Assembly: GCA_034927685.1 (NCBI GenBank)
Contig: JAYFPO010000021.1
Span: forward strand, 17,299 to 41,298
From: Oscillospiraceae bacterium
GTDB lineage: Bacteria > Bacillota > Clostridia > Oscillospirales > Oscillospiraceae
Length of the DNA: 24,000 nt
Direction: 5' to 3'
This document shows positions 3,058 through 17,771 of this stretch, piece after piece. The notes beneath the pieces are model-generated. The model was not told the DNA's origin. It worked only from the letters and a program-made list of their open reading frames with translations, and searched no databases. Made by a program: the position numbers and the translations under genes. Position 1 is the first letter of the stretch, and each line of letters begins with the position of its first letter.

Positions 3058-5577
3058 TCAGGGGGTTTCGTTTCCCTTCGCGGTGTCGATGCCAGCCGCG
3101 TTTTCCAGATGCAGGCGCGCAATCGCATCCTCGCGCATCTTGTATTTCAGGATTTTCCCCGCGGCGTTCATGGGGAAAGCGTCCACAAACTCGATATACT
3201 TCGGCACCTTATGCCGCGCCATGCTGGCTTTGATGTAGTCGAGCAGCTCCTGCTCCGTGACGCTGCCGGACTGCTTCAGGATGACGCAGGCCATGGCCTC
3301 CTCGCCGTACTTTTTGTCCGGCACGCCGACCACCTGCACATCCCGGACCGCCGGATGGGTATAGATGAATTCCTCGATCTCCTTGGGGTAGATGTTCTCG
3401 CCGCCGCGGATAATCATATCCTTCAGGCGGCCCGTGATCCGGTAGTTGCCGTCCTCGTCCCGGCAGGCCAGGTCGCCGGAATGGAGCCAGCCCTCGCGGT
3501 CCACGGTGTCCCGCGTGGCCTCCGGCATTTTGTAGTAGCCCTTCATGGTGTTGTAGCCCCGGGAGCAGAACTCGCCGTTCACGCCCGCCGCCACCGCTTC
3601 CCCGGTCTCCGGGTCGATGACCTTACACTGGACATGCGGGAAGTCGTAGCCGACGGTCTCTGTGCGCAGCGCGAGCGGATCGTCCCAGGCGGACATGGTG
3701 CTGCCGGGCGCGGACTCCGTCTGGCCGTAGACGCTGACGATGCCGGTCATGTTCATCTCACTTGGCTGCGCGGCCCGGCGCATGAGCTCCGCCGGACAGC
3801 CGGAGCCGGCCATGATGCCCGTGCGCATGTGGGAAAAGTCGGTCTTCCGGTAGTCGGGATGGCTGAACATGGCGATGAACATGGTGGGCACGCCGTTGAA
3901 GCAGGTGATCCGCTCCTGGTTGACGCAGGCCAGCGACGACTTCGCGGAAAAATAGGGCAGCGGACAGAGCGTCGCGCCGTGGGTCATGCACGAGGTCATG
4001 GAGAGAACCATGCCGAAGCAGTGGAACATCGGCACCTGGATCATCATTCGGTCCGCCGTGGAGAGATCCATGCGGTCGCCGATGCACTTGCCATTGTTGA
4101 CCACGTTGTAGTGGGTCAGCATGACGCCCTTGGGGAAGCCGGTGGTGCCGGAGGTGTACTGCATATTGCAAACATCGTCCGCATGCACCCGCGCCGCCAT
4201 TCTGGCCACTTCCTCCCGGGGGACCAGATCCGCCCGCTCCATGGCCTCATCAAAGGTCAGGCAGCCGGGCTGCCGGAAGCCGACGGTGATGACGTTGCGG
4301 AGGAACGGCAGGCGCTTGCAGTGGAGCGGTGCGCCGGGCTTACTGCTCCCAATTTCCGGGCAGAGCTCGTTGATGGTCGCCCGGTAATCGGAGTCCAGAC
4401 AGGATTCGATCATGACGAGCGTGTGCGTGTCGGACTGCCGGAGCAGATACTCCGCCTCATGGATCTTATAGGCCGTGTTGACCGTCACCAGCACCGCGCC
4501 GATCTTCGTGGCGGCCCAGAAGGTCAGATACCACGCGGGCACGTTGGTGGCCCAGATGGCCACTTTGCCGCCGGCCCGGACGCCCATGGAGATGAGCGCG
4601 CGCGCGAAGGTATCCACATCCTCGCGGAACTCCTCATAGGTCCTCGTGTAGTCGAGCGTCGTATACTTGAAGGCATACTGGTCCGGGAACTCCTCCACCA
4701 TCCGGTCCAGCACCCGGGAAAAGGTCAGGTCGATCAGCTCATCCTTCTTCCAGACGTACCGGCCCGTGTGGGCGTGGTTGTCATACAGGTCCTTTTTCTT
4801 GCCGCGGGGATTGTCGAACCTGTGCATATAGTTCACGAAGTGCGGGAAAATAACGTCCTTTTCCTGTAGGTCCCCCATCCATTCCGGCTTCCACTCCAGC
4901 GAGATAAAGCCGTCATAGTTGATGGAGGAGAGGGCGCGCATCATCTCGGCAACCGGCAGATTGCCCTCGCCGATCAGGTTATAGGTGTCCCTGTCGTCGG
5001 AGTCCCGCAGGTGGACATGGCGCACATAGGCGCCGAGATTCTTGATCGTCGCGTCCGCGCTCTCGCCGTGGTCCCGGTAGGGGTGGTGCATATCCCAGAG
5101 GGCCGCGAGCTGGTCGCAGGCAAATTCGTCCATCAGCGCGCGGAGCCGCGCCGTGTCGGCGTAGATGCCGCTGGTCTTCAGCAGCAGCACCGGGCCCAGC
5201 GCCTCCGCCGCGGGCAGAAGCTCCCGCAGCGCCGCGCGGACCCGCGCCTCGTCGTCGCAGAGCGCGACGCATGACACGCAGGGTACCTGCAGATCGCGCG
5301 CCAGCTCCAGCAGATTCAGGAGCGTCCGCACCGCGTCCCCGTCCGCGGATACGTCGCAGGAGGTATCCAGGCAGGAAATCCGGATCTGCTTTTCCCGCAG
5401 CAGGCGGACCGTGGCCGCGGCGGTAACTTTGTGGAGCGGGCCGCCTCGCTCAAACCATTCCGGCCTTTTCTGAACATTATACAGCTCGACGCCGCCGAAG
5501 CGCATCTCCTGCGCGGTATCCAGCAGTTCTTCCCAACGCAGGGCCTCCCAGCCTCTTGTGGAAAAGGAGAGATTCAT
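3058..5577 (-). CDS. Fusion protein: xylose-isomerase-like TIM barrel (N-terminal) :: adenylate-forming acyl-CoA ligase (C-terminal)
   Basis: 839-aa ORF with GAGGAGG RBS. Its ATG overlaps the upstream stop (ATGA at 5574-5577). Residues 1-~250 resemble the AP_endonuc_2/sugar-phosphate-isomerase TIM barrel (HVHLRD, FISLEWK). Residues ~280-839 carry ligase motifs YTSGTTGFPKGVMLTH, VYGQTES, GRLKDMIIRGGENIYP and AAGKILK. Confidence 0.85.
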   Translation of the reverse strand: MNLSFSTRGWEALRWEELLDTAQEMRFGGVELYNVQKRPEWFERGGPLHKVTAAATVRLLREKQIRISCLDTSCDVSADGDAVRTLLNLLELARDLQVPCVSCVALCDDEARVRAALRELLPAAEALGPVLLLKTSGIYADTARLRALMDEFACDQLAALWDMHHPYRDHGESADATIKNLGAYVRHVHLRDSDDRDTYNLIGEGNLPVAEMMRALSSINYDGFISLEWKPEWMGDLQEKDVIFPHFVNYMHRFDNPRGKKKDLYDNHAHTGRYVWKKDELIDLTFSRVLDRMVEEFPDQYAFKYTTLDYTRTYEEFREDVDTFARALISMGVRAGGKVAIWATNVPAWYLTFWAATKIGAVLVTVNTAYKIHEAEYLLRQSDTHTLVMIESCLDSDYRATINELCPEIGSSKPGAPLHCKRLPFLRNVITVGFRQPGCLTFDEAMERADLVPREEVARMAARVHADDVCNMQYTSGTTGFPKGVMLTHYNVVNNGKCIGDRMDLSTADRMMIQVPMFHCFGMVLSMTSCMTHGATLCPLPYFSAKSSLACVNQERITCFNGVPTMFIAMFSHPDYRKTDFSHMRTGIMAGSGCPAELMRRAAQPSEMNMTGIVSVYGQTESAPGSTMSAWDDPLALRTETVGYDFPHVQCKVIDPETGEAVAAGVNGEFCSRGYNTMKGYYKMPEATRDTVDREGWLHSGDLACRDEDGNYRITGRLKDMIIRGGENIYPKEIEEFIYTHPAVRDVQVVGVPDKKYGEEAMACVILKQSGSVTEQELLDYIKASMARHKVPKYIEFVDAFPMNAAGKILKYKMREDAIARLHLENAAGIDTAKGNETP

Positions 5578-6992
5578 ACTTCCGCCTCCTCATAGACGAT
5601 TTTGTTGAGCGCGCTCAGGTAGGCCAGGATGCTGGCCCCCAGAATATCGGTGGAAATGCCGCGGCCGGAATAGAGCTTGCCGTTCGAGCGGAGCTTGACC
5701 ACGGTTTGGCCCATGGCCTCGCGGCCCTCGGTGACGGCCTGAATCTGGAAGTCGTCCAGCTCGTAGTGGCGGCCGGCGATCTGCTCGATGGCCAGGAACG
5801 CGGCGTCAATGGGGCCGTCGCCGACGGAGATGCCCTCCAGCACCCGATCCTGCCGGCGCAGCTTCATATGCGCCGTCGCGGTGATGATATTGCCGGTGTT
5901 GATGACGTAGCTCTCCATCTTATAGGTGGGCGGCACCTGTAGGGCCGCCGCGGCCACGATGGCGTCCAGCTCCTTGGAGCCGACCCGCTCCTTGCGGTCG
6001 GCGATCCGGCAAAACGCCTCGTAGACCTTGACGCCGTCCTCCTCGGAGAGATCATAGCCCAGCCGGGCCACGGCCTTCAGGACCGCGCTCATCTCGTCGT
6101 GGCTGGTCAGGGTCACGCTCTCGCCGCTCTCCTCCACGCCGTTGTCAAAGGGCGAATTCTTGCTGCGGTTCGTCTGGCACATCCAGACGATCTGGCTGAG
6201 AATGCGTTTCATCTCCGTCATGCGGACCGCGCAGCAGGCGTCGAATTTGTCCCCTTTGGCCGCCAGGACCCGGGCCACATTCTCCAGCGCCGCCGTACCC
6301 ACGGGATAGGAGGCCACCTTGACCTCCCCCGCCCCGCAGCGCACGGCCGCAATGGCGCAGGAATCGGCCATGGACAGCGTGTCGGCGCAGGAGACGCCCA
6401 GACAGACGCCCCGCAGCGCGGGCACGGCCGCGTAGAGCTTTTGCAGGAACGCCGCGAACTCATCGGGCAGCATGGCCCCGGCGGTGTCGCAGACCGTGAC
6501 GGTGGAGGCGCCTGCCTCGATGGCGGCCGAAACGGCCGCGTGCAGGAATTCCTCGTCGCTGCGGGTTGCGTCATCGGCCAGGAACTCCACGTCCCCGCAG
6601 CACGCCCGGCAGGCGGCAACGGTCTCGCGGATGGCCGAAAGCATCGCCTCCGGCTTTTTGTGGTGCAGGTATTCCATCTGCACGGGGCTGACCGGCGCCG
6701 CCACCTGAAGCCGGGGACACGCCGCCTCACGCAGGGCGTTCCAGGTCGTCTGCACGCTCTCCTCGGAAAGCTGCACCGGCACGGCCACGGCGCAATGCCG
6801 GACCGCCGCCGCCACGGACTTGACGAGCAGGCTGTCGATCTTCGGATTCTGAATGGTCTCCAGCTCGACGACGGACACGCCCAGCCGGTCCAACAGCTTG
6901 GAAAGCTCAATTTTCTCTTTAAAGGTCAGGGTAAAGCCGGCGGCTCTCCCCGTCTGTTTCATGGTGACGTCGCTGATTCTGATTTCGTTCAT
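5574..6992 (-). CDS. 2-isopropylmalate synthase-like protein with degenerate catalytic site and intact LeuA-type C-terminal regulatory domain
   Basis: 472 aa with AAGGAGAG RBS. The HMGL-like N-terminal half aligns to LeuA. DTTLRDGEQ is replaced by DVTMKQTGR and HxHNDxG by SCADTLS. DT.G (CDTAG) and E..DD..R (EFLADDATRS) are kept. The C-terminal GDGPIDAAFLAIEQI...GREAMGQTVVKLRSNGKLYSGRGISTDILGASILAYLSALNKI matches the LeuA dimerisation/regulatory domain. Confidence 0.8.
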   Translation of the reverse strand: MNEIRISDVTMKQTGRAAGFTLTFKEKIELSKLLDRLGVSVVELETIQNPKIDSLLVKSVAAAVRHCAVAVPVQLSEESVQTTWNALREAACPRLQVAAPVSPVQMEYLHHKKPEAMLSAIRETVAACRACCGDVEFLADDATRSDEEFLHAAVSAAIEAGASTVTVCDTAGAMLPDEFAAFLQKLYAAVPALRGVCLGVSCADTLSMADSCAIAAVRCGAGEVKVASYPVGTAALENVARVLAAKGDKFDACCAVRMTEMKRILSQIVWMCQTNRSKNSPFDNGVEESGESVTLTSHDEMSAVLKAVARLGYDLSEEDGVKVYEAFCRIADRKERVGSKELDAIVAAAALQVPPTYKMESYVINTGNIITATAHMKLRRQDRVLEGISVGDGPIDAAFLAIEQIAGRHYELDDFQIQAVTEGREAMGQTVVKLRSNGKLYSGRGISTDILGASILAYLSALNKIVYEEAEV

Positions 6993-7020
6993 CGCCGTAT
7001 CTCTCCTTTTTGTATGGAAT

Positions 7021-7296
7021 AAAAAAACGTCCCTGAGGCTATTTTGCCTCAGGGACGAACTTTCCTGTTCGCGGTACCACCCTGCTTATTCCCGCCGCGC
7101 GGGAATCCCTCTCGGACTCCGATAAGTCCATAGCCTGTAACGGGGCGGCCGGGTTCCATTACTCGCGGAGCTTTCACGGAACCGACTCGGGAAGCAGAAT
7201 GCAGCTCTCTTCGGTACCGGCTCGCACCACCCGCCGGCTCTCTGAAACGCGAACTGAGAACGCAAATTTCCGTCATCGTCTTTTGCAGTTTAGATT
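7021..7296 (-). promoter_or_regulatory. T-box riboswitch leader (specifier read as CUG, Leu; tentative)
   Basis: Read on the minus strand: K-turn GATGACGGAA...TTCCCGAGTC, AG bulge CAGAGAG (rc of 7238-7244), distal loop CGGGTGGTGCGA, F-box-like CCGTTAC. T-box core GGGTGGTACCGCG is the rc of 7070-7082. Terminator CGTCCCTGAGG/CCTCAGGGACG (7028-7057) is followed by T7 (7027-7021). The triplet next to the basal helix is CUG (rc of 7195-7197), followed by C rather than the usual purine. Confidence 0.85.
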
Positions 7297-7331: not shown

Positions 7332-7378
7332 CGGGTAATTTGAAGAAAAATTTGGAGGCGCGTTTCTGAAAAAAGGAT

Positions 7379-7407
7379 TTGACATTTTGGATGCGGCATG
7401 ATATAGT
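7379..7407 (+). promoter_or_regulatory. Sigma-A-type promoter for the Ile T-box unit
   Basis: TTGACA (7379-7384), a 17-nt spacer, then TATAGT (7402-7407). Divergent from the minus-strand promoter, with 47 bp between the two -35 hexamers. Confidence 0.55.
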
Positions 7408-7412
7408 TGGCC

Positions 7413-7689
7413 CAACATAAAAAAGGCTTTGACGAAGACGGTTGGATTCTCAAATGTTCAGAGAGCCGGTGGTTGGTGTGAACCGGTGATTTTGAGTCCT
7501 CAGACCTATCACTTCCGAGCTGGAGACCCGAACGGCCAAAGGCCAAGTAGATATCTCCCGTACGCCCGCGTTAAGGGATAGGACTTATCGGAGTCTGAAG
7601 TGGCGGCAGGAATGCCGCAAATTGAGTGGTACCGCGGGTTATGCAGTTTTTGCAGCTCGTCTCAAGAATATCTTGGGGCGAGCTTTTTT
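7413..7689 (+). promoter_or_regulatory. T-box riboswitch leader (specifier read as AUC, Ile)
   Basis: K-turn TTGACGAAG...CTTCCGAGC, AG bulge CAGAGAG (7459-7465), distal stem CCGG/CCGG with loop TGGTTGGTGTGAA. AUC (7508-7510) plus A lies directly 5' of the basal helix. T-box core GAGTGGTACCGCG is at 7624-7636. Terminator GCTCGTCTCAAG/CTTGGGGCGAGC (7655-7683) is followed by T6 (7684-7689). Confidence 0.9.
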
Positions 7690-7715: not shown

Positions 7716-9983
7716 ATGAAAGAACAGACCAGCAGCAGCCAGCTCATGGAGGTCGCCCTCCGGATCCGCGAAATGCGGGAGATCGACGGCTACACCGCCC
7801 AGGAGATGGCACAGAAAACAGAGGTCAGCACAGAGCTCTATCAGTCCTATGAGGACGGCCTCACCGATCTGCCCTTTACCTTTATTCACAAGTGCGCCAA
7901 AACCTTCGGCATTGAAATTGCCGACCTGCTGGAGGGGCAGAGCGCCCATCTCTCCTCCTATACCGTGACGCGCCGCGGCACGGGCAGCCAGACCGCCAAG
8001 GAAAACGGCATCTCCATTGTCAACCTGGCCCCGCGCTTCCGCCAGAAGCTGGCAGAGCCGTACTGGGTCACCTACGACTATGACAAGGAGCAGGAGCAGC
8101 GCCCCATCCACCAGACCACCCACGGCGGGCAGGAGTTCGACCTGATTCTCAGCGGCCGCCTCAAGGTGCAGATCGGCAGCCACACCGAGTTTCTGGAAGA
8201 GGGCGACAGCATTCTTTATAACTCCTCCATCCCCCACGGCATGATCGCGGTCGGCGGCACGAGCTGCCAGTTCTGCGCCGTGATTTTGCCGGGCGAGGAG
8301 GTCGAGGAGACGGCTGTCCGCCGGAGCCTGCTCCCCGAAAAGCGCGCCGAGCCCTACGTCTGTCAGGAGTTCGTCGACGCCGCGGAGAATGCCGACGGGA
8401 CGCTGAATTCCATCTATTTTAAAAACGAGGACACGTTCAACTTTGCCTTTGACATCGTCGACGCTCTTGGCAAAAAATACCCGAAAAAGCGGGCCATGCT
8501 CCACCTCGACAAGCATCAGGTCGAGCGGGATTTCTCCTTTGAGGACATGAAGAAGGAGTCCGCCCGGGCCGCCAACTACTTTAAGGCGCTCGGCATCCAG
8601 CGGGGCGACCGCGTCATGCTGGTCCTGAAGCGGCACTACCAATTCTGGTTTGCCATCCTGGGACTCCACAAGCTGGGCGCCATCGCCATTCCCGCCACCA
8701 ACCAGCTCCTCGAGCACGACTTCGTCTACCGCTTTGACGCAGCGGGCGTCAGCACCATTCTCTGCACTGCGGACGGCGATACCGCCGACTGTGTGGACGC
8801 GGCCGCGCAGCAGTGCCCCCAGCTCCATACGAAAATCCTGGTGGGCGGCAAGCGGGACGGCTGGCACGACTTCGACGCCGAGTGTCCCATGTACAGCAGT
8901 CACTTCCCCAGAACGGACGACAGCCCCTGCGGCGACGACCCCATGCTGATGTTCTTCACCTCCGGCACCACCGGCTACCCGAAGATCGCCACGCACAACT
9001 ACAAATATCCGCTCGGTCACTACATCACCGCCAAATACTGGCACTGCGTCTCCCCCAACGGTCTCCACTTCACCATCTCCGAAACCGGCTGGGGCAAAGC
9101 CCTCTGGGGCAAGCTATACGGACAGTGGCTCTGCGAGGGCGCGGTCTTTACCTACGATTTCGACCGGTTCGACGCCGTGGAGATCCTCCCGATGTTTGCG
9201 AAGTACCACATCACCACCTTCTGTGCGCCTCCCACCATGTACCGCATGATGATCCGGCAAGATCTCAGCGTGTACGATTTCAGTTCCCTGGACCACATCA
9301 CCACCGCGGGCGAGGCGCTGAATCCGGAGGTATACCGGCTCTTCGAGAAACAGACCGGCCTGCAAATCATGGAGGGCTACGGTCAGACCGAGCTGACGCT
9401 CACCATCGGCAACCTGATCGGCACGCAGCCCCGCCTTGGCTCCATGGGCAAGGCCATGCCGCTCTACGACATCCACCTGCTTGACCCGGACGGCAACCAC
9501 TGCGGCGCGGGCGCCAGCGGCGAAATCTGCGTGAAAACCGACGAGAAACTGCCCTGCGGCCTCTTTATGGGCTACTACCGCGACGAAAAGCGGACCAAAG
9601 ACGTCTGGCACGACGGCTACTACCACACCGGCGACGTGGCCTGGCGGGACGAGGACGGTTACTACTGGTATGTGGGGCGGGTGGACGACGTCATCAAGTC
9701 CTCCGGCTACCGGATCGGGCCTTTTGAGATTGAGAGCGTCATCACCGAGCTGCCCTATGTCCTCGAGTGCGGCGTCTCCGCCGCGCCGGATGAGGTCCGC
9801 GGGCAAGTCGTCAAGGCCAGCATCGTGCTGGTCCCGGGCACGGAACCCTCGGAAGCGCTGAAAAAAGAAATTCAGGATTACGTCAAGCACCACACCGCAC
9901 CCTATAAGTATCCGCGCATCGTGGTGTTCCGCGACGACCTGCCCAAGACCATCAGCGGCAAGGTCATCCGAAATCAGCTCTAA
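7716..9983 (+). CDS. Fusion protein: XRE-type HTH + cupin sensor domain :: medium-chain-type (ACSM-like) acyl-CoA synthetase, paralog A
   Basis: The track ORF begins at 7626 inside the T-box terminator. The ATG at 7716 (MKEQTSSS) has an AGGAGG RBS. Residues ~10-72 are an HTH_3-like domain and ~95-191 a cupin (HGGQEFDLILSG...GDSILYNSSIPHGM). Residues ~215-755 are a ligase (FNFAFDIVD, FFTSGTTGYPK, GYGQTE, GRVDDVIKSSGYRIGPFEIE, PKTISGKVIR). There is no stop or internal start at the domain junction. Confidence 0.9.
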   Translation: MKEQTSSSQLMEVALRIREMREIDGYTAQEMAQKTEVSTELYQSYEDGLTDLPFTFIHKCAKTFGIEIADLLEGQSAHLSSYTVTRRGTGSQTAKENGISIVNLAPRFRQKLAEPYWVTYDYDKEQEQRPIHQTTHGGQEFDLILSGRLKVQIGSHTEFLEEGDSILYNSSIPHGMIAVGGTSCQFCAVILPGEEVEETAVRRSLLPEKRAEPYVCQEFVDAAENADGTLNSIYFKNEDTFNFAFDIVDALGKKYPKKRAMLHLDKHQVERDFSFEDMKKESARAANYFKALGIQRGDRVMLVLKRHYQFWFAILGLHKLGAIAIPATNQLLEHDFVYRFDAAGVSTILCTADGDTADCVDAAAQQCPQLHTKILVGGKRDGWHDFDAECPMYSSHFPRTDDSPCGDDPMLMFFTSGTTGYPKIATHNYKYPLGHYITAKYWHCVSPNGLHFTISETGWGKALWGKLYGQWLCEGAVFTYDFDRFDAVEILPMFAKYHITTFCAPPTMYRMMIRQDLSVYDFSSLDHITTAGEALNPEVYRLFEKQTGLQIMEGYGQTELTLTIGNLIGTQPRLGSMGKAMPLYDIHLLDPDGNHCGAGASGEICVKTDEKLPCGLFMGYYRDEKRTKDVWHDGYYHTGDVAWRDEDGYYWYVGRVDDVIKSSGYRIGPFEIESVITELPYVLECGVSAAPDEVRGQVVKASIVLVPGTEPSEALKKEIQDYVKHHTAPYKYPRIVVFRDDLPKTISGKVIRNQL

Positions 9984-9991
9984 AATTTTAA

Positions 9992-10020
9992 TTGACAACT
10001 TCATATTTGCGTGCTATGAT
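9992..10020 (+). promoter_or_regulatory. Sigma-A-type promoter for the Val T-box unit
   Basis: TTGACA (9992-9997), a 17-nt spacer, then TATGAT (10015-10020). It is preceded by the AT palindrome TAAAATTTTA (9981-9990), which includes the stop codon of paralog A. Confidence 0.55.
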
Positions 10021-10026
10021 TCTTTG

Positions 10027-10310
10027 CAATAAAGGCTTTGACGGAGAGGGCCGGATACATCCCGTATCTCAGAGAAATGGCGGTTGGTGCGAGCCATGGA
10101 TACGCGTACCCGGTTTGTAGCTCCCGAGCCGGAGAGAAGAACGCGAAAGCCAGTAGACCTCTCCCGTGTCAGCCGCGTCAGAGCTTAGGGCTTATTGGAG
10201 CCCAATGAGGGGTGTTCGCTGTAAGACGGACACAATTTGAGTGGTACCGCGGGTTGCATTCGCAGCTCGTCTCAAAGAATCATTTCTTTGAGACGAGCTG
10301 TTTGTTTTTG
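10027..10310 (+). promoter_or_regulatory. T-box riboswitch leader (specifier read as GUA, Val)
   Basis: K-turn TTGACGGAG...CTCCCGAGC, AG bulge CAGAGAA (10071-10077), distal stem ATGGC/GCCAT with loop GGTTGGTGCGA. The 7-nt 3' specifier-loop side is TTTGTAG, with GUA at 10118-10120 followed by G. T-box core GAGTGGTACCGCG is at 10240-10252. A perfect 17-bp terminator CAGCTCGTCTCAAAGAA/TTCTTTGAGACGAGCTG (10264-10301) is followed by TTTGTTTTT. Confidence 0.9.
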
Positions 10311-10335
10311 TCTCAAAAACGAAGGAGATCGCCCT

Positions 10336-12633
10336 ATGCAAGAACAGAACATCACAGGCCTCGAATACAAAATCCGCGAAATGGCGGGCCGTATCCGCGA
10401 GCTGCGGGAGATCACCGGCCTCACTGTCCCGGAAATGGCCGCGCGCACCGGCGTCACCGAGGCGGAATACCTCCTGTGCGAAAACGGCGAGCGCGACCTC
10501 AACATCGCCTTCCTTTACCGCTGCGCCCTGAGCTTCGGCGTCGACGTGACGGACCTGATCGAGGGCCAGAGCCCCAAACTCCGCTCCTACACCCTGACCA
10601 GGGCCGGCGCCGGCCAGAAAATCGAACAGGCGCACCGGATGACCTACTACAATCTGGCCGCCGACTTCCAGGACCGCGTGGCGCTGCCGCTCTATGTCGT
10701 CATCCAGCACAGCAAGGAGGCCGAGCACGAGGACATCGAGCTGACCACGCACGACGGGCAGGAATGCGACCTCGTCGTCTCCGGCCATATGAAGGTCCAG
10801 ATCGGCGAGCATACGGAAATCCTTCACGCCGGCGACAGCGTCTATTACGATTCCTCCACGCCGCACGGCATGATCGCCGTGGACGGCCAGGACTGCTGCT
10901 TCTATGCCATCGTGCTGAACCCGGCCGAAACGCCCGCTCCCATCGGCGAACGGCCCGCCGAAAAGGCGCTTCCGGACCGCGACTCCCCGGAAAAGGACGA
11001 AGAGAGCCGGATTTATCAGGACTACGTCATCCCCACGGAGGAAGACGGCCGACTGACGAAGATCGCCTTTCAAAACGAGGACACCTTCAACTTTGCCTTC
11101 GACGTGGTGGACGCCCTCGGCCAGAAGAAGCCGAACAAGCTCTGTATGCTGCACGTCTCCGGGGACGGCACCGAGCGCCGCTTCACCTTTGCGGATATGA
11201 AAAAAGAGTCCGCCCGGGCCGCCAACTACTTCAAATCCCTCGGCATCCGGCAGGGCGACCGGGTGATGCTGGTTCTCAAGCGCCACTGGCAGTTCTGGCC
11301 CGCCATTCTGGGCCTGCACAAGCTGGGCGCCATCGCGATTCCCGCCACCAATCAGCTCCAGACCCACGACTTTTCCTACCGCTTCGACGCCGCGGACGTT
11401 TCCGCCATTCTCTGCACCGCCGACGGCCAGACCGCCGACTGCGTGGAAGAAGCCGCCGCGGAACGCCCGCAGGTCAGAACGAAAATTCTGGTGGGCGGCA
11501 GCCGGAAGGGCTGGCACGACTTCGATGAGGAGTATACCCTCTATAGCAGCCACTTTCTCCGCGCGGAGGACGCCCCCTGCGGCGACGACCCCATGCTGAT
11601 GTTCTTCACCTCCGGCACCTCGGGCTACCCGAAGCTGGCGGCGCACAACTATAAATACCCGCTCGGACACTTCATCACGGCCAAATACTGGCAGCGCGTC
11701 GACCCCGAAGGTCTGCATCTGACGATCTCCGACACCGGCTGGGCCAAGGCTCTCTGGGGCAAGCTCTATGGCCAGTGGCTCTGCGAGGGCGCAACCTTTG
11801 TCTACGACTTCGACCGCTTCGACGCCGAGAAGATTCTCCCGATGTTCGCGAAATACCACATCACCACCTTCTGTGCGCCGCCCACCATGTACCGGATGCT
11901 GATTAAGTGCGACCTCAGCCGGTTCGACCTCTCCTCCGTCGAGCATGCCTCCATCGCGGGCGAGGCGCTGAACCCCGAGGTGTTCCGCCAGTTCTACAAG
12001 GCCACGGGGCTGCGGATCATGGAGGGCTTCGGCCAGTCCGAATCCACGCTCATCATCGGCAACCTGGCCGGCGAAAAGCACAAGATCGGTTCGATGGGCA
12101 AGCCGGTGCCGCTCTATGACGTCTGTCTGCTGACCCCGGAGGGCGACGAAGCCGCCACCGGCGAGAACGGCGAAATCTGCGTCAACCTTGCAAACGGCCT
12201 GCCATGCGGCCTCAGCTACGGCTATGACGGCAGCCCGGACATCACCGCCCAGACCTGGAGGAACGGGTTCTACCACACCGGAGACCTGGCCTGGAAGGAT
12301 GAGGACGGCTTCTACTGGTACGTCGGCCGGGCCGACGACGTCATCAAGTCCTCGGGCTACCGCATCGGGCCATTTGAGATTGAAAACGTCATCATGGAGC
12401 TGCCCTATGTGCTCGAGTGCGGCGTCTCCGCCGCGCCGGACGAGGTCCGCGGCCAGGTGGTCAAGGCCAGCATCGTGCTGGTCCAGGGCACAGAGGGGAC
12501 CGACGCGCTCAAGAAGGAAATTCAGAGCTACGTCAAGGCCCACACAGCCCCCTACAAATACCCCCGCATTGTGGAATTCCGGGATGAACTCCCCAAGACC
12601 ACCAGCGGCAAGATTATCAGAAAGCAGTTGTGA
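10336..12633 (+). CDS. Fusion protein: XRE-type HTH + cupin sensor domain :: ACSM-like acyl-CoA synthetase, paralog B
   Basis: The track ORF begins at 10237 within the T-box. The ATG at 10336 (MQEQNITG) follows AAGGAG. It has the same three-domain architecture and ligase motifs as paralog A (FFTSGTSGYPK, GFGQSE, GRADDVIKSSGYRIGPFEIE, PKTTSGKIIR). Confidence 0.9.
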   Translation: MQEQNITGLEYKIREMAGRIRELREITGLTVPEMAARTGVTEAEYLLCENGERDLNIAFLYRCALSFGVDVTDLIEGQSPKLRSYTLTRAGAGQKIEQAHRMTYYNLAADFQDRVALPLYVVIQHSKEAEHEDIELTTHDGQECDLVVSGHMKVQIGEHTEILHAGDSVYYDSSTPHGMIAVDGQDCCFYAIVLNPAETPAPIGERPAEKALPDRDSPEKDEESRIYQDYVIPTEEDGRLTKIAFQNEDTFNFAFDVVDALGQKKPNKLCMLHVSGDGTERRFTFADMKKESARAANYFKSLGIRQGDRVMLVLKRHWQFWPAILGLHKLGAIAIPATNQLQTHDFSYRFDAADVSAILCTADGQTADCVEEAAAERPQVRTKILVGGSRKGWHDFDEEYTLYSSHFLRAEDAPCGDDPMLMFFTSGTSGYPKLAAHNYKYPLGHFITAKYWQRVDPEGLHLTISDTGWAKALWGKLYGQWLCEGATFVYDFDRFDAEKILPMFAKYHITTFCAPPTMYRMLIKCDLSRFDLSSVEHASIAGEALNPEVFRQFYKATGLRIMEGFGQSESTLIIGNLAGEKHKIGSMGKPVPLYDVCLLTPEGDEAATGENGEICVNLANGLPCGLSYGYDGSPDITAQTWRNGFYHTGDLAWKDEDGFYWYVGRADDVIKSSGYRIGPFEIENVIMELPYVLECGVSAAPDEVRGQVVKASIVLVQGTEGTDALKKEIQSYVKAHTAPYKYPRIVEFRDELPKTTSGKIIRKQL

Positions 12634-12637
12634 CACC

Positions 12638-13327
12638 ATGGAACCAAAACGCCTGACTCTGTTTGCCGGACACTACGGCAGCGGGAAAACCAATATTGCG
12701 GTCAATTACGCCGTCTATTTAAGGCGGCAGGGGAAGTCCGTGACCATCGCCGATCTGGACATCGTAAACCCCTACTTCCGCACCAAGGACAGCGCCGCGC
12801 TGCTGGAGCAGCTCGGCATCTCGCTGATCTGCTCGCAGTTCGCCAACAGCAACCTGGATATGCCCGCCATGCCCAAGGAGGCCTACGAACTGGTGGACGA
12901 CCGGCAGGAATACGGCGTGCTGGACATCGGCGGCGACGACCGCGGCGCGCTGGCGCTCGGCCGGTACACCCCGGCGATTCTGGAGGAAAACAACTACGAG
13001 ATGCTGTTCGTCATCAACCGTTCCCGCCCCCTGACCAGAACGCCGGAAGACACAATGGACGTGCTGCGGGAAATTGAGACCGCCTGTCGCCTGCCCTTCA
13101 CGGGCATCGTCAACAACACGAATCTGGGCCGCCAAACCACCGCGGAGGATGTGCTCCGCAGCCGGGACTACGCGGAGGAAATCTCCCGCGTCTCCGGCCT
13201 GCCGCTCAGAATGACCACCGTCAACCACCCGCTGCAACAAGCGCTGGAAGAAGATATCCCGAATCTGTTCCCGCTCCATCTGCAGGAGCAGTACTATGAA
13301 ATCAGAATGGAGGAAACCCATGGCTAA
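12638..13327 (+). CDS. P-loop NTPase (MinD/ParA/CooC-like SIMIBI class), unknown role
   Basis: The ATG at 12638 lies 4 nt after the paralog B stop. The longer track ORF (12188) is an out-of-frame overlap. Walker A FAGHYGSGKTN, then DLDIVNPYF and a Walker-B-like LDIGGDDRG. The 3' end overlaps the next gene by 8 nt. Confidence 0.7.
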   Translation: MEPKRLTLFAGHYGSGKTNIAVNYAVYLRRQGKSVTIADLDIVNPYFRTKDSAALLEQLGISLICSQFANSNLDMPAMPKEAYELVDDRQEYGVLDIGGDDRGALALGRYTPAILEENNYEMLFVINRSRPLTRTPEDTMDVLREIETACRLPFTGIVNNTNLGRQTTAEDVLRSRDYAEEISRVSGLPLRMTTVNHPLQQALEEDIPNLFPLHLQEQYYEIRMEETHG

Positions 13328-13526
13328 GCTGACATTTCGGGAAGAATTATGCAAGGGCTGCGGCCTCTGCGTAAATGCCTGTCCAAAGGGCATTCTCACG
13401 CTCTCCCGGACCAGACTCAATCAGAAGGGGCTCTCGCCCGTAGAACTGACCCAGCCCGACCTGTGCATCGGCTGCGCGTTCTGCGCCACCATGTGCCCGG
13501 ACTGCGTCATCACGGTAGAAAAATAG
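13320..13526 (+). CDS. 2-oxoacid:ferredoxin oxidoreductase delta subunit (2x[4Fe-4S] ferredoxin)
   Basis: 68 aa starting at the ATG at 13320 (GGAGGA RBS). Two CxxCxxCxxxCP motifs are present (CKGCGLCVNACP, CIGCAFCATMCP). Confidence 0.85.
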   Translation: MAKLTFREELCKGCGLCVNACPKGILTLSRTRLNQKGLSPVELTQPDLCIGCAFCATMCPDCVITVEK

Positions 13527-13541
13527 GAAAGGAGCACGTTC

Positions 13542-14600
<1,059 letters not shown>

Positions 14601-14602
14601 GT

Positions 14603-15340
14603 ATGGTAGTATTTGAAAAACCAAAGGCGTTAACCGACGCTGTTCTGCACTACTGCCCCGGCTGCACCCACGGCATCGTCCACCGTTTGGTGGCGGAGGC
14701 CATTGACGAGCTGGGCATCGAAGGAAAGACCATCGGCATCGCCCCCGTCGGCTGCGCCGTGCTGGCCTACAACTATTTCACCTGCGACATGCTGGAGGCC
14801 GCCCATGGCAGAGCGCCCGCCGTCGCCACCGGCGTCAAGCGCTCCCTGCCCGACCATGTGGTCTTCACCTATCAGGGCGACGGCGACCTGGCCTCCATCG
14901 GCATGTGCGAGACCGTACACAGCGCCGCCCGCGGCGAAAACATCACCATTATCTTCATCAACAACGCGATCTATGGCATGACCGGCGGCCAAATGGCCCC
15001 CACCTCCCTGGTGGGGCAGGTCACGCAGACCTCTCCCTACGGCCGCGACGCCGCCACGCAGGGCTATCCCATCCGCGTCTGCGAAATGCTCAGCGAGCTG
15101 GACGGCCCCTCCTATCTGGAGCGCGTCACCGTCAACAGCGTCAAAAACGTCAAAAATGCCAAGAAGGCGATCAAAAAGGCCTTCCAGAATCAGCTCGACG
15201 GCAAGGGCTTCTCGCTGGTCGAGGTTCTTTCCTCCTGCCCCACCAACTGGGGCCTCACGCCGCAGAAGGCGCTCGAGTGGATCGACGAGAAGATGATTCC
15301 CTACTATCCGCTTGGCGTTTACCGGGACAAGGAGGGTTAA
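14603..15340 (+). CDS. 2-oxoacid:ferredoxin oxidoreductase beta subunit (TPP-binding)
   Basis: Start at ATG 14603 (MVVFEKPK), 2 nt after the alpha stop. The longer track ORF overlaps alpha. Cys motif HYCPGCTHG and TPP motif GDGDLASIG...[11 protein letters not shown]. Confidence 0.9.
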
Positions 15341-15343
15341 GCC

Positions 15344-15883
15344 ATGGCTGAACATCAAATCGTAATCGCGGGCTTCGGCGGACAGGGTCTGCTGTTCTCC
15401 GGCAAGGTGCTGGCCTACGCCGGCCTCATGGAGGACCGCCAGATCAGCTGGCTGCCGTCCTACGGCCCCGAAATGCGCGGCGGCACCGCCAACTGCAATG
15501 TCATCCTCAGCGACAGCCCCGTCGGCTCCCCCATCGTCGACCACCCCGACATTCTGATGGTCATGAACGCCCCGTCCCTCGACAAATACGAGGACGCGGT
15601 GCGGCCCGGCGGCATGATCTTCCTGGACTCCACCCTGATCGGCCGGAAGGTCAACCGGTCCGACGTCACCGCCTGCTACATTCCCGCCACGCAGATGGCG
15701 AACGACATGGGCGCGCCCGCGCTGGCCAATATGATTCTGCTGGGCGCGCTGGTGCGGCACACCGCCTGCGTCTCCGACGAGATGCTGGAGGCCGGACTGC
15801 GGAAGGTCGTCCCCGCCCGGAAGGCCGACATGATCGACCTGAACCTCAAGGCCCTGCTGGCAGGAAAGGATTTCTCGGAATGA
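15344..15883 (+). CDS. 2-oxoacid:ferredoxin oxidoreductase gamma subunit
   Basis: 179 aa. VIAGFGGQGLLFSGKVLA and SYGPEMRGGTANC are typical of the gamma subunit/domain. The start lies 3 nt after the beta stop. Confidence 0.9.
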   Translation: MAEHQIVIAGFGGQGLLFSGKVLAYAGLMEDRQISWLPSYGPEMRGGTANCNVILSDSPVGSPIVDHPDILMVMNAPSLDKYEDAVRPGGMIFLDSTLIGRKVNRSDVTACYIPATQMANDMGAPALANMILLGALVRHTACVSDEMLEAGLRKVVPARKADMIDLNLKALLAGKDFSE

Positions 15884-16665
15884 AAATTTCCTGCATCCAG
15901 ATGGATATGCAGCTTGGCCTTCCCGATGAAAACTTCGGGAAGGCCGCCCGGCTGATCGAAGCCGCCATGGCGGAGGCGCCCGACGTGATCGTGCTGCCTG
16001 AGACGTGGAACGTGGGCTTTTTCCCGAAGGATGCCCTCGCGTCCCTCTGCGACCGGGACGGCGCGCGGGTCCGGACTGAGCTGGGTACGCTGGCAAAAAA
16101 ACACGGGGTCAATCTCGTGGCCGGCAGCGTCGCCAACCTGCGGGGCGACAAGGTATACAATACCGCCCTGGTCTTTGACCGCGGCGGCGCCTGCGTCGCC
16201 GCCTACGACAAGACGCACCTCTTCACCCCCCTGGGCGAGGACCGGTTCTTTACCCCCGGCGACCACCTGTGCAAGTTTACGCTGGACGGCGTCCCCTGCG
16301 GCCTCATCATCTGCTACGACATCCGGTTCCCGGAGCTGACGCGCACCATGGCCCTCAGCGGCATGGACCTGATGTTCGTGGTATCCCAGTGGCCGAAGGT
16401 GCGGATTTCCCACCTGCGGGCGCTGACCACGGCCCGCGCCATTGAAAACCAGATGTTCCTCTGCTGCTGCAACTCCTGCGGCACGGCGGGCAAGACCGTC
16501 TACGGCGGCGCCTCCGCGATTCTGGACCCCTGGGGCGAAACTCTGGCGCTGGCGGGCGAAGGCGAGGAAATTCTCTCCGCCGACTGCGACTTCTCCATCG
16601 TAACCCACATCCGCGAGACCATCAATGTCTTTGCAGACCGGAAAAGCGGCCTGTACCAGCTATAA
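15880..16665 (+). CDS. Carbon-nitrogen hydrolase (nitrilase superfamily; omega-amidase/YafV-like)
   Basis: 261 aa. The Glu-Lys-Cys triad contexts are present (LPETWN, YDKTHLF, IICYDIRFPE). The ATG overlaps the gamma subunit stop (ATGA at 15880-15883). Confidence 0.85.
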   Translation: MKISCIQMDMQLGLPDENFGKAARLIEAAMAEAPDVIVLPETWNVGFFPKDALASLCDRDGARVRTELGTLAKKHGVNLVAGSVANLRGDKVYNTALVFDRGGACVAAYDKTHLFTPLGEDRFFTPGDHLCKFTLDGVPCGLIICYDIRFPELTRTMALSGMDLMFVVSQWPKVRISHLRALTTARAIENQMFLCCCNSCGTAGKTVYGGASAILDPWGETLALAGEGEEILSADCDFSIVTHIRETINVFADRKSGLYQL

Positions 16666-16682
16666 GAAAGAAGGAACTTACC

Positions 16683-17771
16683 ATGTCCTACCATTTTCCC
16701 GTCACCAGAACCACAAGCCCCAAGCCCCGTCCCGAGGATGTGAGCAAGCTGGGCTTTGCCAAATACTTCACGGACCACATGTTCGTCATGGAGTACGACG
16801 AGGGCCAGGGTTGGCACGACGGCCGCGTGGTCCCGCACGCGCCGTTTCTGATCGAGCCGGCCTCCGCCGTGCTGCATTATGCGCAGATGATGTTCGAGGG
16901 TATGAAGGCCTACCGCCGCCCCGACGGCACGATCCAGCTCTTCCGCCCCGACATGAACATCGCCCGGATGAAGCGCACCTGCGAGCGGATGTGCATGCCG
17001 GAGATTCCCGGCGATCTGTTCCTGGCCGCCGTCGAAGCCGTCCTCCACGAGGACCGCGACTGGGTCCCCTCCGAGCCAGGCACCGCCATGTATATCCGGC
17101 CCTTCCTGTTCGGCGACGAGGTCTCCTTCTCCGTCCTGCCGGCGAAGCATTATAAGTTCCTCATCATTCTGAGCCCGACCGGCTCCTACTACGCAGCGAA
17201 CAACGGCGGCCTGGTCACCACCCGGATCTTCGTCGAGGACGAATACATCCGCGCCGCGCCCGGCGGCACCGGCTACGCCAAGGTCGGCGGCAACTACGGC
17301 GGCGGCATGCGCGCCTCCCAGAAAGCCCTGCAATACCAGTGCAAGGACGTGCTGTGGCTGGACGCCATGGAGCACAAGTACGTCGAGGAAATCGGCACCT
17401 CCAACGCCTTCTTCCGCATCGCGGACGAGGTCATCACCGCCCCGCTGGACAGCGGCACGATTCTGCCCGGCATCACGCGCAACTCCGTCATTCAGCTGTT
17501 AAAAAGCTGGGGCGTCCGGATCTCCGAGCGCAGGCTCTCGATTGACGACGTCATGGCCGCCTCGAAAGACGGCAGTCTGCAGGAGGTCTTCGCCTCCGGC
17601 ACCGCCGCGGTCATCTCCCCGATCGGCTTTTTGAGCTACCTCGACGAAGATCATCCGGTCGCCGACACCAAGGTCGGCCCCATCGCCCAGAAGCTCTACG
17701 ACACGCTCTACGGCATCCAAACCGGCACCCTGCCCGACACGATGGGCTGGACCTATCCGCTCGGTTTTTGA
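16683..17771 (+). CDS. ilvE: Branched-chain amino acid aminotransferase (fold-type IV, long form)
   Basis: 362 aa. MFEGMKAYR, IRPFLFG, the PLP-lysine context GGTGYAKVGGNYG, GTSNAFF, ILPGITR and GTAAVISPI are typical of YbgE/YwaA-type BCATs. Confidence 0.9.
   Translation: MSYHFPVTRTTSPKPRPEDVSKLGFAKYFTDHMFVMEYDEGQGWHDGRVVPHAPFLIEPASAVLHYAQMMFEGMKAYRRPDGTIQLFRPDMNIARMKRTCERMCMPEIPGDLFLAAVEAVLHEDRDWVPSEPGTAMYIRPFLFGDEVSFSVLPAKHYKFLIILSPTGSYYAANNGGLVTTRIFVEDEYIRAAPGGTGYAKVGGNYGGGMRASQKALQYQCKDVLWLDAMEHKYVEEIGTSNAFFRIADEVITAPLDSGTILPGITRNSVIQLLKSWGVRISERRLSIDDVMAASKDGSLQEVFASGTAAVISPIGFLSYLDEDHPVADTKVGPIAQKLYDTLYGIQTGTLPDTMGWTYPLGF

Follow-up and report, generated by a model that had tools for sequence, protein, structure and literature searches.

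The window analysed here is a stretch of 24,000 nucleotides (nt) from the assembly of an Oscillospiraceae bacterium (GCA_034927685.1, contig JAYFPO010000021.1, positions 17,299 to 41,298 of the forward strand), and all coordinates given without a locus name are positions in this window. It contains two tandem genes, A and B, each behind its own T-box leader and each encoding a protein in which a module of a helix-turn-helix (HTH) fold and a cupin barrel is joined in frame to an acyl-CoA ligase. We describe the architecture, distribution and probable origin of these fusion proteins, and propose tentatively that the module is a metal- or ligand-sensing domain acting on the attached ligase. The two genes, and the domains of protein A, are the following:

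7716-9983, plus strand: fusion protein A, 755 amino acids (aa), candidate 2-methylbutyrate-CoA ligase
7743-7949, plus strand: HTH-like (XRE-fold) domain of A, five helices, net charge -7 (Pfam and AlphaFold2 (AF2))
8061-8300, plus strand: cupin barrel of A, with the triad H136/E140/H174 (Pfam Cupin_2)
8418-9980, plus strand: MbcS/MacsMa-type acyl-CoA ligase domain of A (3ETC match, NCBIfam MbcS, ANL motifs)
10336-12633, plus strand: fusion protein B, 765 aa, laid out as A, candidate isobutyrate-CoA ligase

Architecture of the fusion proteins

Protein A is made up of the HTH-like domain (ca. aa 10-78), a connector (79-115), the cupin (116-195), a linker (ca. 196-234) and the ligase (235-755). 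The likely start of A is the ATG at 7716, preceded by AGGAGG, and that of B the ATG at 10336, preceded by GAAGGAG. A first-pass annotation, made from the sequence alone, had described an HTH, a cupin and a ligase fused in one frame and present twice, and Pfam bears this out for both open reading frames (ORFs), which are 64% identical over their full length. Cupin_2 matches aa 132-189 of A with 38 bits against a cutoff of 27, and B with 44 bits, also above the cutoff. AMP-binding covers aa 253-621 of A (194 bits) and AMP-binding_C aa 671-749, with the same layout in B (AMP-binding, ca. 194 bits). The HTH matches fall just below the gathering scores, those of HTH_19, HTH_3 and HTH_31 to aa 13-74 of A having E-values of 4e-5 to 2e-4, and the matches over both proteins ranging from 2e-6 to 1e-3.

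Neither reading frame has an internal stop codon, and the earlier statement that no stop, ribosome-binding site or start separates the parts also holds. There is no ATG at the junctions, and the only alternative codons, GTG/TTG at aa 189/191 of A and at aa 193 of B, have a Shine-Dalgarno match of two positions in six. Among 102 orthologs, in-frame starts preceded by a Shine-Dalgarno sequence are not meaningfully enriched at the junction (0.16 versus 0.09 per gene per 66 codons). A frameshift artefact is ruled out because the fusion recurs in more than 120 protein clusters and in all 122 module-carrying ORFs of the loci compared below; an internal start as the source of separate proteins was likewise rejected.

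Distribution

The fusion is real and widespread. A cluster search covering 5.8 billion proteins shows these domains together in over 120 separate 90%-identity clusters, of 752-757 aa and at 72-85% identity; one of the clusters is identical to protein A. All of their members come from Oscillospiraceae or Eubacteriales assemblies and are named merely "AMP-binding protein". In a scan of one genome per GTDB species, at least 536 genomes encode a relative of the N-terminal module, all of them gut or rumen Clostridia. Locus comparisons were made with the best 80 loci of these genomes plus the window; in this set every module-carrying ORF (122/122) is a fusion, and the tandem A-B pair is found in more than half of the loci. 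In one locus (L027) a B-type ligase copy without HTH-cupin (12596-14396 of that locus, plus strand; ca. 600 aa from stop to stop, 64% identical) sits downstream of a normal A-type fusion, which suggests that the module can be lost.

Literature searches found no published characterisation of the HTH-cupin-ligase architecture. Those on T-boxes with 2-oxoisovalerate:ferredoxin oxidoreductase (Vor, or VOR) and isobutyrate, on MbcS relatives with extra domains, and on the HTH of HppE and DNA yielded nothing on it, and a DNA affinity purification sequencing (DAP-seq) paper on C. thermocellum does not cover the HTH-cupin subfamily of the window. The thought that this might be a common and already characterised family is thus right as to its being common (at least 536 genomes) and wrong, as far as these searches went, as to its being characterised. 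All of the parts belong to known families; their combination, and the dedicated pairing with one ligase type, are unstudied.

Origin from a split gene pair

An exhaustive search with aa 1-235 against 1.84 billion cluster representatives gave 2313 relatives. Below the fusions these are stand-alone proteins of ca. 184 aa, 32-42% identical over the whole module and sharing its motifs H.GQEF..VL.G and GDSIYFDSS.PHGM. A profile of the stand-alone proteins retrieves more than 5000 Clostridia clusters, with generic annotations. In three of three unrelated contexts the stand-alone gene lies immediately 5' of a co-directional gene for a 552-aa AMP-binding protein, the split module being 35% and the split ligase 53% identical to the corresponding halves of protein A; one of these contexts also holds a TIM barrel and a ligase as separate genes, the split form of the other ligase fusion of the window.

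The 80 metagenomic loci matched by the profile comprise 33 fusions, 25 split pairs, three modules without a ligase, one ambiguous case and 18 contigs that are too short, so that a ligase lies directly 3' of the stand-alone module gene in 25 of 28 informative loci. The gap between the split genes has a median of 18 nt, and stop and start overlap in six of the 25, as expected for stoichiometric partners. From this context of the stand-alone genes, the window proteins are Rosetta-stone fusions of a dedicated, stoichiometrically coupled gene pair. A T-box motif precedes six of the 25 split pairs; three other pairs, checked with Rfam, have none. The T-box-bearing pairs (L091-L094, L111 and L118) have the ligases closest to the fused ones (53-59% identity). 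An order of events is suggested in which a split pair acquired a T-box and was then fused.

Fold, selection and probable metal site of the module

Mean identity within a type is 0.66-0.70 for the HTH, 0.70-0.75 for the cupin and 0.72 for the N-domain of the ligase; the module is thus conserved like the catalytic N-domain, and is functional and under purifying selection. Where A and B diverge, they do so chiefly in the module (between/within ratio 0.66-0.81, versus 0.94-0.99 in the ligase), and 14 of 16 type-specific positions fall within aa 45-189. Apart from control at the promoters, A and B thus differ mostly in the module.

An AF2 model of the module, built on a diverse alignment, has a mean predicted local distance difference test (pLDDT) score of 84 and consists of five helices followed by a cupin barrel, with residues 198-219 disordered. 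The HTH helices occupy aa 3-24, 28-34, 39-46, 54-64 and 68-73, with pLDDT >90. The full-length model, from a shallow alignment of 33 sequences at 72-85% identity, has a mean pLDDT of 61.7 and a cupin below 50; it is unusable for domain packing and was excluded from the fold search. A search of the PDB with the single N-terminal sequence gave no match, and only a family profile found 1Y9Q and the hydroxypropylphosphonate epoxidase HppE. The putative regulator 1Y9Q is the best PDB match by E-value (3e-10, in two stretches). HppE is matched end to end (positions 9-182, E = 8e-8), its H-x-G-x-E-F ... P-H motif aligning with H136/E140/H174 so that the His/Glu/His metal ligands coincide, at an identity of merely 18-20%. 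Foldseek ranks HppE (1ZZ9; 3.3e-13) and 1Y9Q (6.5e-13) first, followed by Psf4, HEPD and MPnS.

The triad is invariant in 66/66 A-type and 36/36 B-type proteins and in 171-175 of 178 stand-alone relatives, and the nearby residues G138, Q139 and D164 are also invariant. Because of this invariance, a metal or ligand site in the cupin is very likely. The triad was also considered as a means of telling enzymes from regulators and rejected, PuuR having kept H-x-G-E-E ... P-H.

Does the module bind DNA?

The first-pass annotation had likened the domain pair to that of PuuR-type repressors and proposed, on the example of BirA, that the fusions may be enzymes which also bind DNA. The first part stands, the XRE-cupin pair being confirmed by Pfam, by the AF2 fold and by the match to 1Y9Q. 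XRE-cupin transcription factors (PuuR and SutR of E. coli; ErfA, PsdR and PauR of P. aeruginosa; 1Y9Q) have the same five-helix XRE fold plus Cupin_2 in ca. 185 aa and sit beside a related metabolic gene, and the PuuR cupin has the motif H-x-G-x-E ... P-H; by BLAST only this cupin is detected (31% over 55 aa). The module differs from them in being fused or translationally coupled to a partner enzyme, in lacking a detectable operator, and in the surface of its HTH.

The HTH has a net charge of -7 in A and -6 in B, and the stand-alone relatives are likewise acidic, compared with +3 in PuuR, +4 in SutR, +3 in 1Y9Q and +1 in PezA, all validated DNA binders, and with -4 in the enzyme HppE. Helix 3 of the family reads (V/I)SxExYxxYExGxxDI, or xVSxEEYxxYExG, with acidic residues at the helix start; that of the DNA binders is of the "VSKAMLGQIERGESSP" type and that of HppE is "ETPETVAAWENGEGGEL". 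The polar or basic helix 3 and the "SSP" turn of the XRE-cupin factors are missing. Among orthologs the exposed helix-3 positions vary and the structural ones are fixed. What marks a DNA-binding-competent HTH, a neutral or basic domain with a conserved polar or basic helix 3, is therefore absent here.

Operators were sought in 68 A-type and 28 B-type non-redundant promoters anchored on the -35 hexamer. No conserved operator was found in the 96; conservation is limited to the -35, the extended -10, an A-rich start and an A-tract from about -45 to -41, and the columns of the spacer carry ca. 0.1 bit. Inverted repeats in A-type promoters exceed those in local shuffles (98 versus 38 +/- 7 perfect hexamer pairs); these dyads consist of A/T runs that share no consensus and have their centres dispersed between -46 and -6. 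The 28 B-type promoters have no such excess. Word enrichment upstream of 22 split pairs found no shared motif, only ribosome-binding sites. The two AT palindromes named earlier as weak operator candidates, TAAAATTTTA at 9981-9990 and AATTT-N6-AAATT at 7337-7352, are present at these coordinates, and find no support as operators: they belong to a generic A/T zone 5' of the -35, without fixed register or consensus. The former includes the stop codon of gene A and lies two bases 5' of the -35 hexamer at 9992-9997. The A/T tracts occupy the usual place of an UP element. CodY boxes as the source of the AT palindromes were rejected, with 5/68 promoters versus 1.1 expected being too few.

In a GC-rich clade (L002-L009, L014-L022, L037 and L043) an invariant "GCAAGTGAATA(A)GAAAAGCG" opens the A-type leader, about 5-25 nt after the -10, while the promoter spacer has fully diverged. 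A similar "CAAG(T/C)GAAT" also follows the -35 in L003 and L036. The window does not have the clade element, which may function as RNA or as a protein site specific to the clade.

An HTH-cupin dimer might nevertheless bind an operator in its own promoter, modulated by a cupin ligand or by occupancy of the ligase, on top of the T-box. Local repressors of the XRE-cupin kind, as dimers, recognise palindromes and repress metabolic genes beside them (PMC7901475), among PDB sequences 1Y9Q matches best, and a stand-alone module placed first in a two-gene operon with its ligase, at three loci without a T-box, fits autoregulation. The modest A/T dyad excess 5' of the A-type promoters, and an HTH under purifying selection that holds type-specific residues, point the same way. 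Against these stand a charge of -6/-7 where validated binders have +1 to +4, the variable exposed positions of helix 3, the lack of an operator conserved in register or sequence or of any motif common to the split pairs, the absence of a B-type repeat excess, HTH scores below the Pfam thresholds and an HTH without BLAST similarity to PuuR. Moreover, the overlap or close abutment of the genes and their recurrent fusion couple the module in a 1:1 ratio with an enzyme that is abundant, an unusual situation for a repressor. None of these lines (selection, HTH surface, operators, stoichiometry) is decisive, and together they make a classical repressor role unlikely and leave the earlier proposal of a BirA-like enzyme-repressor disfavoured. 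BirA, the biotin protein ligase and bio repressor, does supply, with PutA and NadR, the concept of the enzyme-regulator, and like the window proteins, in which competence to bind DNA is doubtful, it has an N-terminal DNA-binding-type domain on an acyl-adenylate-forming enzyme. Its folds are a winged helix and a class II aminoacyl-tRNA synthetase-like domain, not XRE, cupin and ANL, and neither its defined operator (bioO) nor its adenylate-driven dimerisation has a counterpart found for the window proteins.

More doubtful still is a scheme in which the HTH-cupin dimer binds lineage-specific, fast-evolving operators and is tuned by branched acid, amino acid or acyl-adenylate. Together with the T-box this would form a two-input gate, initiation being governed by a protein sensor of the substrate and elongation by the T-box as a sensor of uncharged tRNA. 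If true, it would establish a new class of BirA-like bifunctional ANL ligase in hundreds of gut species.

The ligases and their probable substrates

By their motifs and closest relatives, the ligase halves belong to the MbcS/MacsMa type of branched short-chain acyl-CoA synthetases. Among solved structures the M. acetivorans enzyme Macs (MacsMa; PDB 3ETC, E = 6e-186) is the closest to them. ACSM2A also matches (2e-99), so that the earlier label "ACSM-like" was correct, if less close than 3ETC. The best NCBIfam model is MbcS, with 414 bits, below the equivalog cutoff of 850. The ANL motifs A3 (P-loop), A5, A7 (YxTGD), A8 (hinge) and A10 (Lys) are intact in A and B and in 82-102 of 102 orthologs, and Trp259 of MacsMa (in "AKYW") is conserved as W442. 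MacsMa prefers 2-methylbutyrate (PMC10455477), and MbcS of S. aureus is selective for 2-methylbutyrate and isobutyrate and poor with isovalerate (PMC10026030). Both differ from the window proteins in being stand-alone enzymes of ca. 525-580 aa without the N-terminal module, and by their context (T-box, VOR, IlvE) the window ligases would serve amino-acid synthesis and not fatty-acid priming.

Only two ligase positions separate A from B types. One is the residue after GW in TGW[G/A]K (after W459), which is Gly in A and in MacsMa and Ala in B. It probably corresponds to an acyl-pocket residue of acetyl-CoA synthetase (Acs), in which case the pocket of B might be the smaller one and suit isobutyrate, the smaller acid. 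From the T-box specifiers, the VOR/IlvE context, the homologs and this one residue, we infer that A probably acts on 2-methylbutyrate towards isoleucine and B on isobutyrate towards valine.

Promoters, T-boxes and neighbouring genes

The control elements and the neighbouring genes in the window are:

7379-7407, plus strand: promoter of gene A, TTGACA at 7379-7384, 17-nt spacer, extended -10 TGaTATAGT at 7399-7407
7420-7667, plus strand: T-box leader of A, Ile specifier AUC at 7508-7510 (Rfam RF00230, 90.2 bits, E = 1.4e-19)
9992-10020, plus strand: promoter of gene B, TTGACA at 9992-9997, 17-nt spacer, extended -10 TGcTATGAT
10029-10277, plus strand: T-box leader of B, Val specifier GUA at 10117-10119 (Rfam RF00230, 76.6 bits, E = 4.4e-16)
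ca. 10266-10310, plus strand: terminator hairpin of the B leader
12640-17771, plus strand: operon genes 3' of B, encoding a ParA/NUBPL-like ATPase, VorD, VorA, VorB, VorC, a CN hydrolase and IlvE (Pfam/NCBIfam)
3058-7285, minus strand: divergent Leu-T-box operon, with the T-box at 7048-7285, a LeuA-like gene at 5574-6992 and a TIM-barrel plus AMP-binding fusion at 3058-5577

The T-box layer mentioned in the first-pass annotation is real: both matches are full-length and just under the Rfam gathering score of 93. Each of the two genes has a near-consensus sigma-70 promoter of its own, and the T-box leader comes directly after it. A T-box core precedes 121 of the 122 fusion genes, and the layout of -35, 17-nt spacer and extended -10 is present in 107/112 orthologous leaders. 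Specifiers, read heuristically from Stem I geometry, are AUC (Ile) in 72/80 A-type leaders, or 74/80 on a second reading, and GUA/GUC (Val) in 29 of 41 B-type leaders, the remaining 12 being unreadable by the heuristic. Gene A ends (TAA, 9981-9983) without a terminator ahead of the promoter and T-box of gene B; transcripts from the A promoter should therefore enter the Val T-box, and production of VOR and IlvE from that promoter would need read-through at both the Ile and the Val T-box. Gene B has in addition its own strong promoter.

Vor is the 2-oxoisovalerate:ferredoxin oxidoreductase and VorD its ferredoxin. The VorB model of NCBIfam, matched by 13542-14600, scores 532.6 bits against a cutoff of 399, and IlvE 446.8 against 307. 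The order ATPase-VorDABC-IlvE behind the fusions is kept in 14 of 15 loci of sufficient length. The P-loop ATPase (ca. 12640-13327, plus strand; ParA/CbiA/NUBPL-like, without an NCBIfam match) lies directly 5' of VorDABC in 14/15 loci and may deliver Fe-S clusters to the oxidoreductase. The gene for the nitrilase/omega-amidase-like CN hydrolase (15880-16665, plus strand) separates VorC from IlvE and occurs in 6/15 related loci; by hydrolysing 2-oxoglutaramate, its product could drive a transamination that depends on glutamine.

On the divergent side, the minus-strand fusion at 3058-5577 (839 aa) joins an AP_endonuc_2 xylose-isomerase-like TIM barrel to an AMP-binding domain of a different ligase subfamily and is a candidate isovalerate-CoA ligase. 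It adjoins the HTH-cupin fusions in 45/48 loci, and in L084 it is represented by two separate genes. The LeuA-like gene falls below all NCBIfam isopropylmalate synthase cutoffs (303 versus 532 bits). The Leu T-box specifier is CUG in the window and CUC in nine other loci.

The conversion of branched acids to branched-chain amino acids (BCAA) is long known from classical rumen physiology. Judged by this, by its gene content and by the specificities of homologs, the locus is probably a conserved unit for making isoleucine, valine and leucine from 2-methylbutyrate, isobutyrate and isovalerate, in which each of the three ligases would be licensed by its uncharged cognate tRNA through its own T-box.

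Possible role of the module

The explanation that we tentatively favour is that the module is a metal- or ligand-sensing regulatory domain acting on the attached ligase, and that each protein is a fusion of a coupled pair feeding BCAA salvage. Each joins a partner of ca. 184 aa, of HTH fold and putative metal-cupin, to an MbcS/MacsMa-type synthetase of ca. 552 aa. The ligase would form the acyl-CoA, VorDABC would carboxylate it reductively to the 2-oxoacid and IlvE would transaminate the latter, so that branched-chain fatty acids of the gut become amino acids by a salvage route which the two fusions start. Transcription from strong, constitutive-looking promoters would be governed by the T-boxes, and the module would act 1:1 on the ligase, for instance as fast feedback on, or substrate gating of, a first step that consumes ATP and CoA. 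Its ligand would most plausibly be the end-product amino acid or the acid or acyl-CoA. As in HppE, the part played by the HTH-fold domain would be structural, either a lid or an element for oligomerisation.

The alpha-domain of HppE helps to form the substrate site of the neighbouring subunit. A similar role between subunits would explain why type-specific residues occur in both the HTH-fold domain and the cupin strands, and HppE illustrates that a unit of HTH fold and cupin can work without DNA. A parallel may be seen in the C-terminal domain of LeuA (LeuA_dimer) and the ACT domains of IlvA and AHAS, where, as proposed here, a ligand domain on the first energy-consuming BCAA enzyme is superimposed on RNA control; they differ in fold from HTH plus cupin, and the ligand and allostery of the window proteins are putative. 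That the cupin may gate the ligase allosterically was offered earlier as an alternative. The evidence as a whole favours it. We infer both metal binding by the cupin and protein-level regulation of the enzyme by the module.

Several observations weigh against this proposal. The full-length AF2 model (pLDDT 62) is too poor to define an interface through which the module might touch or regulate the ligase. The tether of ca. 20 aa is poorly conserved and predicted to be disordered, and the module could act independently of the ligase. In the PDB the nearest relative by sequence, 1Y9Q (3e-10), is a putative regulator. Those XRE-cupin proteins that have been characterised act as local repressors of the genes beside them (PMC7901475), and the split pairs have exactly the arrangement of such repressors and their neighbours. 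Three split pairs lack a T-box, and other regulation is therefore needed there. An acidic HTH is no proof that DNA binding was lost; operators could co-evolve rapidly with a variable helix 3 and so escape a consensus search, and there is a modest excess of A/T dyads 5' of the A-type -35 (strong dyads in 34/68 promoters versus 22 +/- 3.7 in shuffles). Since PuuR keeps H-x-G-E-E ... P-H, the triad fails to separate sensor from regulator. Finally, A and B were assigned their substrates by T-box specifiers, by homologs and by one pocket residue with a putative equivalent in Acs.

It is improbable, in our estimation, that the cupin is instead catalytic, an HppE-like metalloenzyme domain carrying out a ligase-coupled isomerisation, hydrolysis or proofreading within a bifunctional enzyme. 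There is a likeness to the non-haem-iron enzymes HppE/Psf4 and HEPD/MPnS: an HTH-fold alpha- and a cupin beta-domain form one unit of ca. 190 aa with a 2-His-1-Glu site, these proteins are the top fold matches, the HppE profile match runs end to end with the metal ligands aligned, and the HppE alpha-domain is also acidic, with a helix 3 of the form E-x-x-E-...-aromatic-E-x-G. The invariance of the triad and of G138, Q139 and D164, the resemblance of the split pairs to an operon of two enzymes, and the fusion of the third ligase of the window to another metal-dependent enzyme fold (the AP_endonuc_2 TIM barrel) would suit a catalytic role as well. The HppE family, however, acts oxidatively on phosphonates in aerobic actinomycetes and pseudomonads, whereas the module is partnered with an acyl-CoA ligase in strict anaerobes, where O2- or H2O2-dependent chemistry is unlikely; no phosphonate genes were seen near the module, whose context is ligase/VOR/IlvE or ligase alone. 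Moreover, salvage through ligase, VOR and IlvE needs no further chemical step, identity to HppE is 18-20%, MbcS and MacsMa work without such a partner, and the regulator PuuR has a similar motif.

Very improbable is a mere scaffold, an oligomerisation or docking element (a cupin dimer or tetramer) that assembles ligases, or ligase and VOR, and senses no ligand. In its favour, oligomerisation through cupins is common, the two genes are coupled stoichiometrically and have fused repeatedly, and the tether is flexible. Against it, the invariant His/Glu/His and its polar neighbours would be difficult to account for if no metal or ligand were bound, there are split pairs with no VOR genes in their vicinity, and type-specific residues in the cupin strands suggest specificity rather than assembly alone.

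Significance

The more solid results are the split-pair origin, the HppE-like HTH, and the organisation of a conserved pathway around three ligases and three T-boxes. The module belongs to a large unstudied family of thousands of clusters, whose members are dedicated partners of a single type of acyl-CoA ligase, coupled to it as genes or fused to it as domains. If they are allosteric sensors, ANL enzymes would have in them a regulatory device of a new kind, and the engineering of acid-activating enzymes a new handle; if they bind DNA, the fusions would be a rare new enzyme-repressor. Either way they are a warning against the automatic annotation of HTH plus cupin proteins as transcription factors, because, in just the traits on which DNA binding depends, this subfamily is like an enzyme, HppE. 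Gut and rumen are rich in branched short-chain fatty acids. The Oscillospiraceae and their relatives are dominant and mostly uncultured commensals, and the locus offers a gene-level model of how branched acids may be turned into BCAA, with three ligases behind Leu, Ile and Val T-boxes feeding VOR and IlvE.

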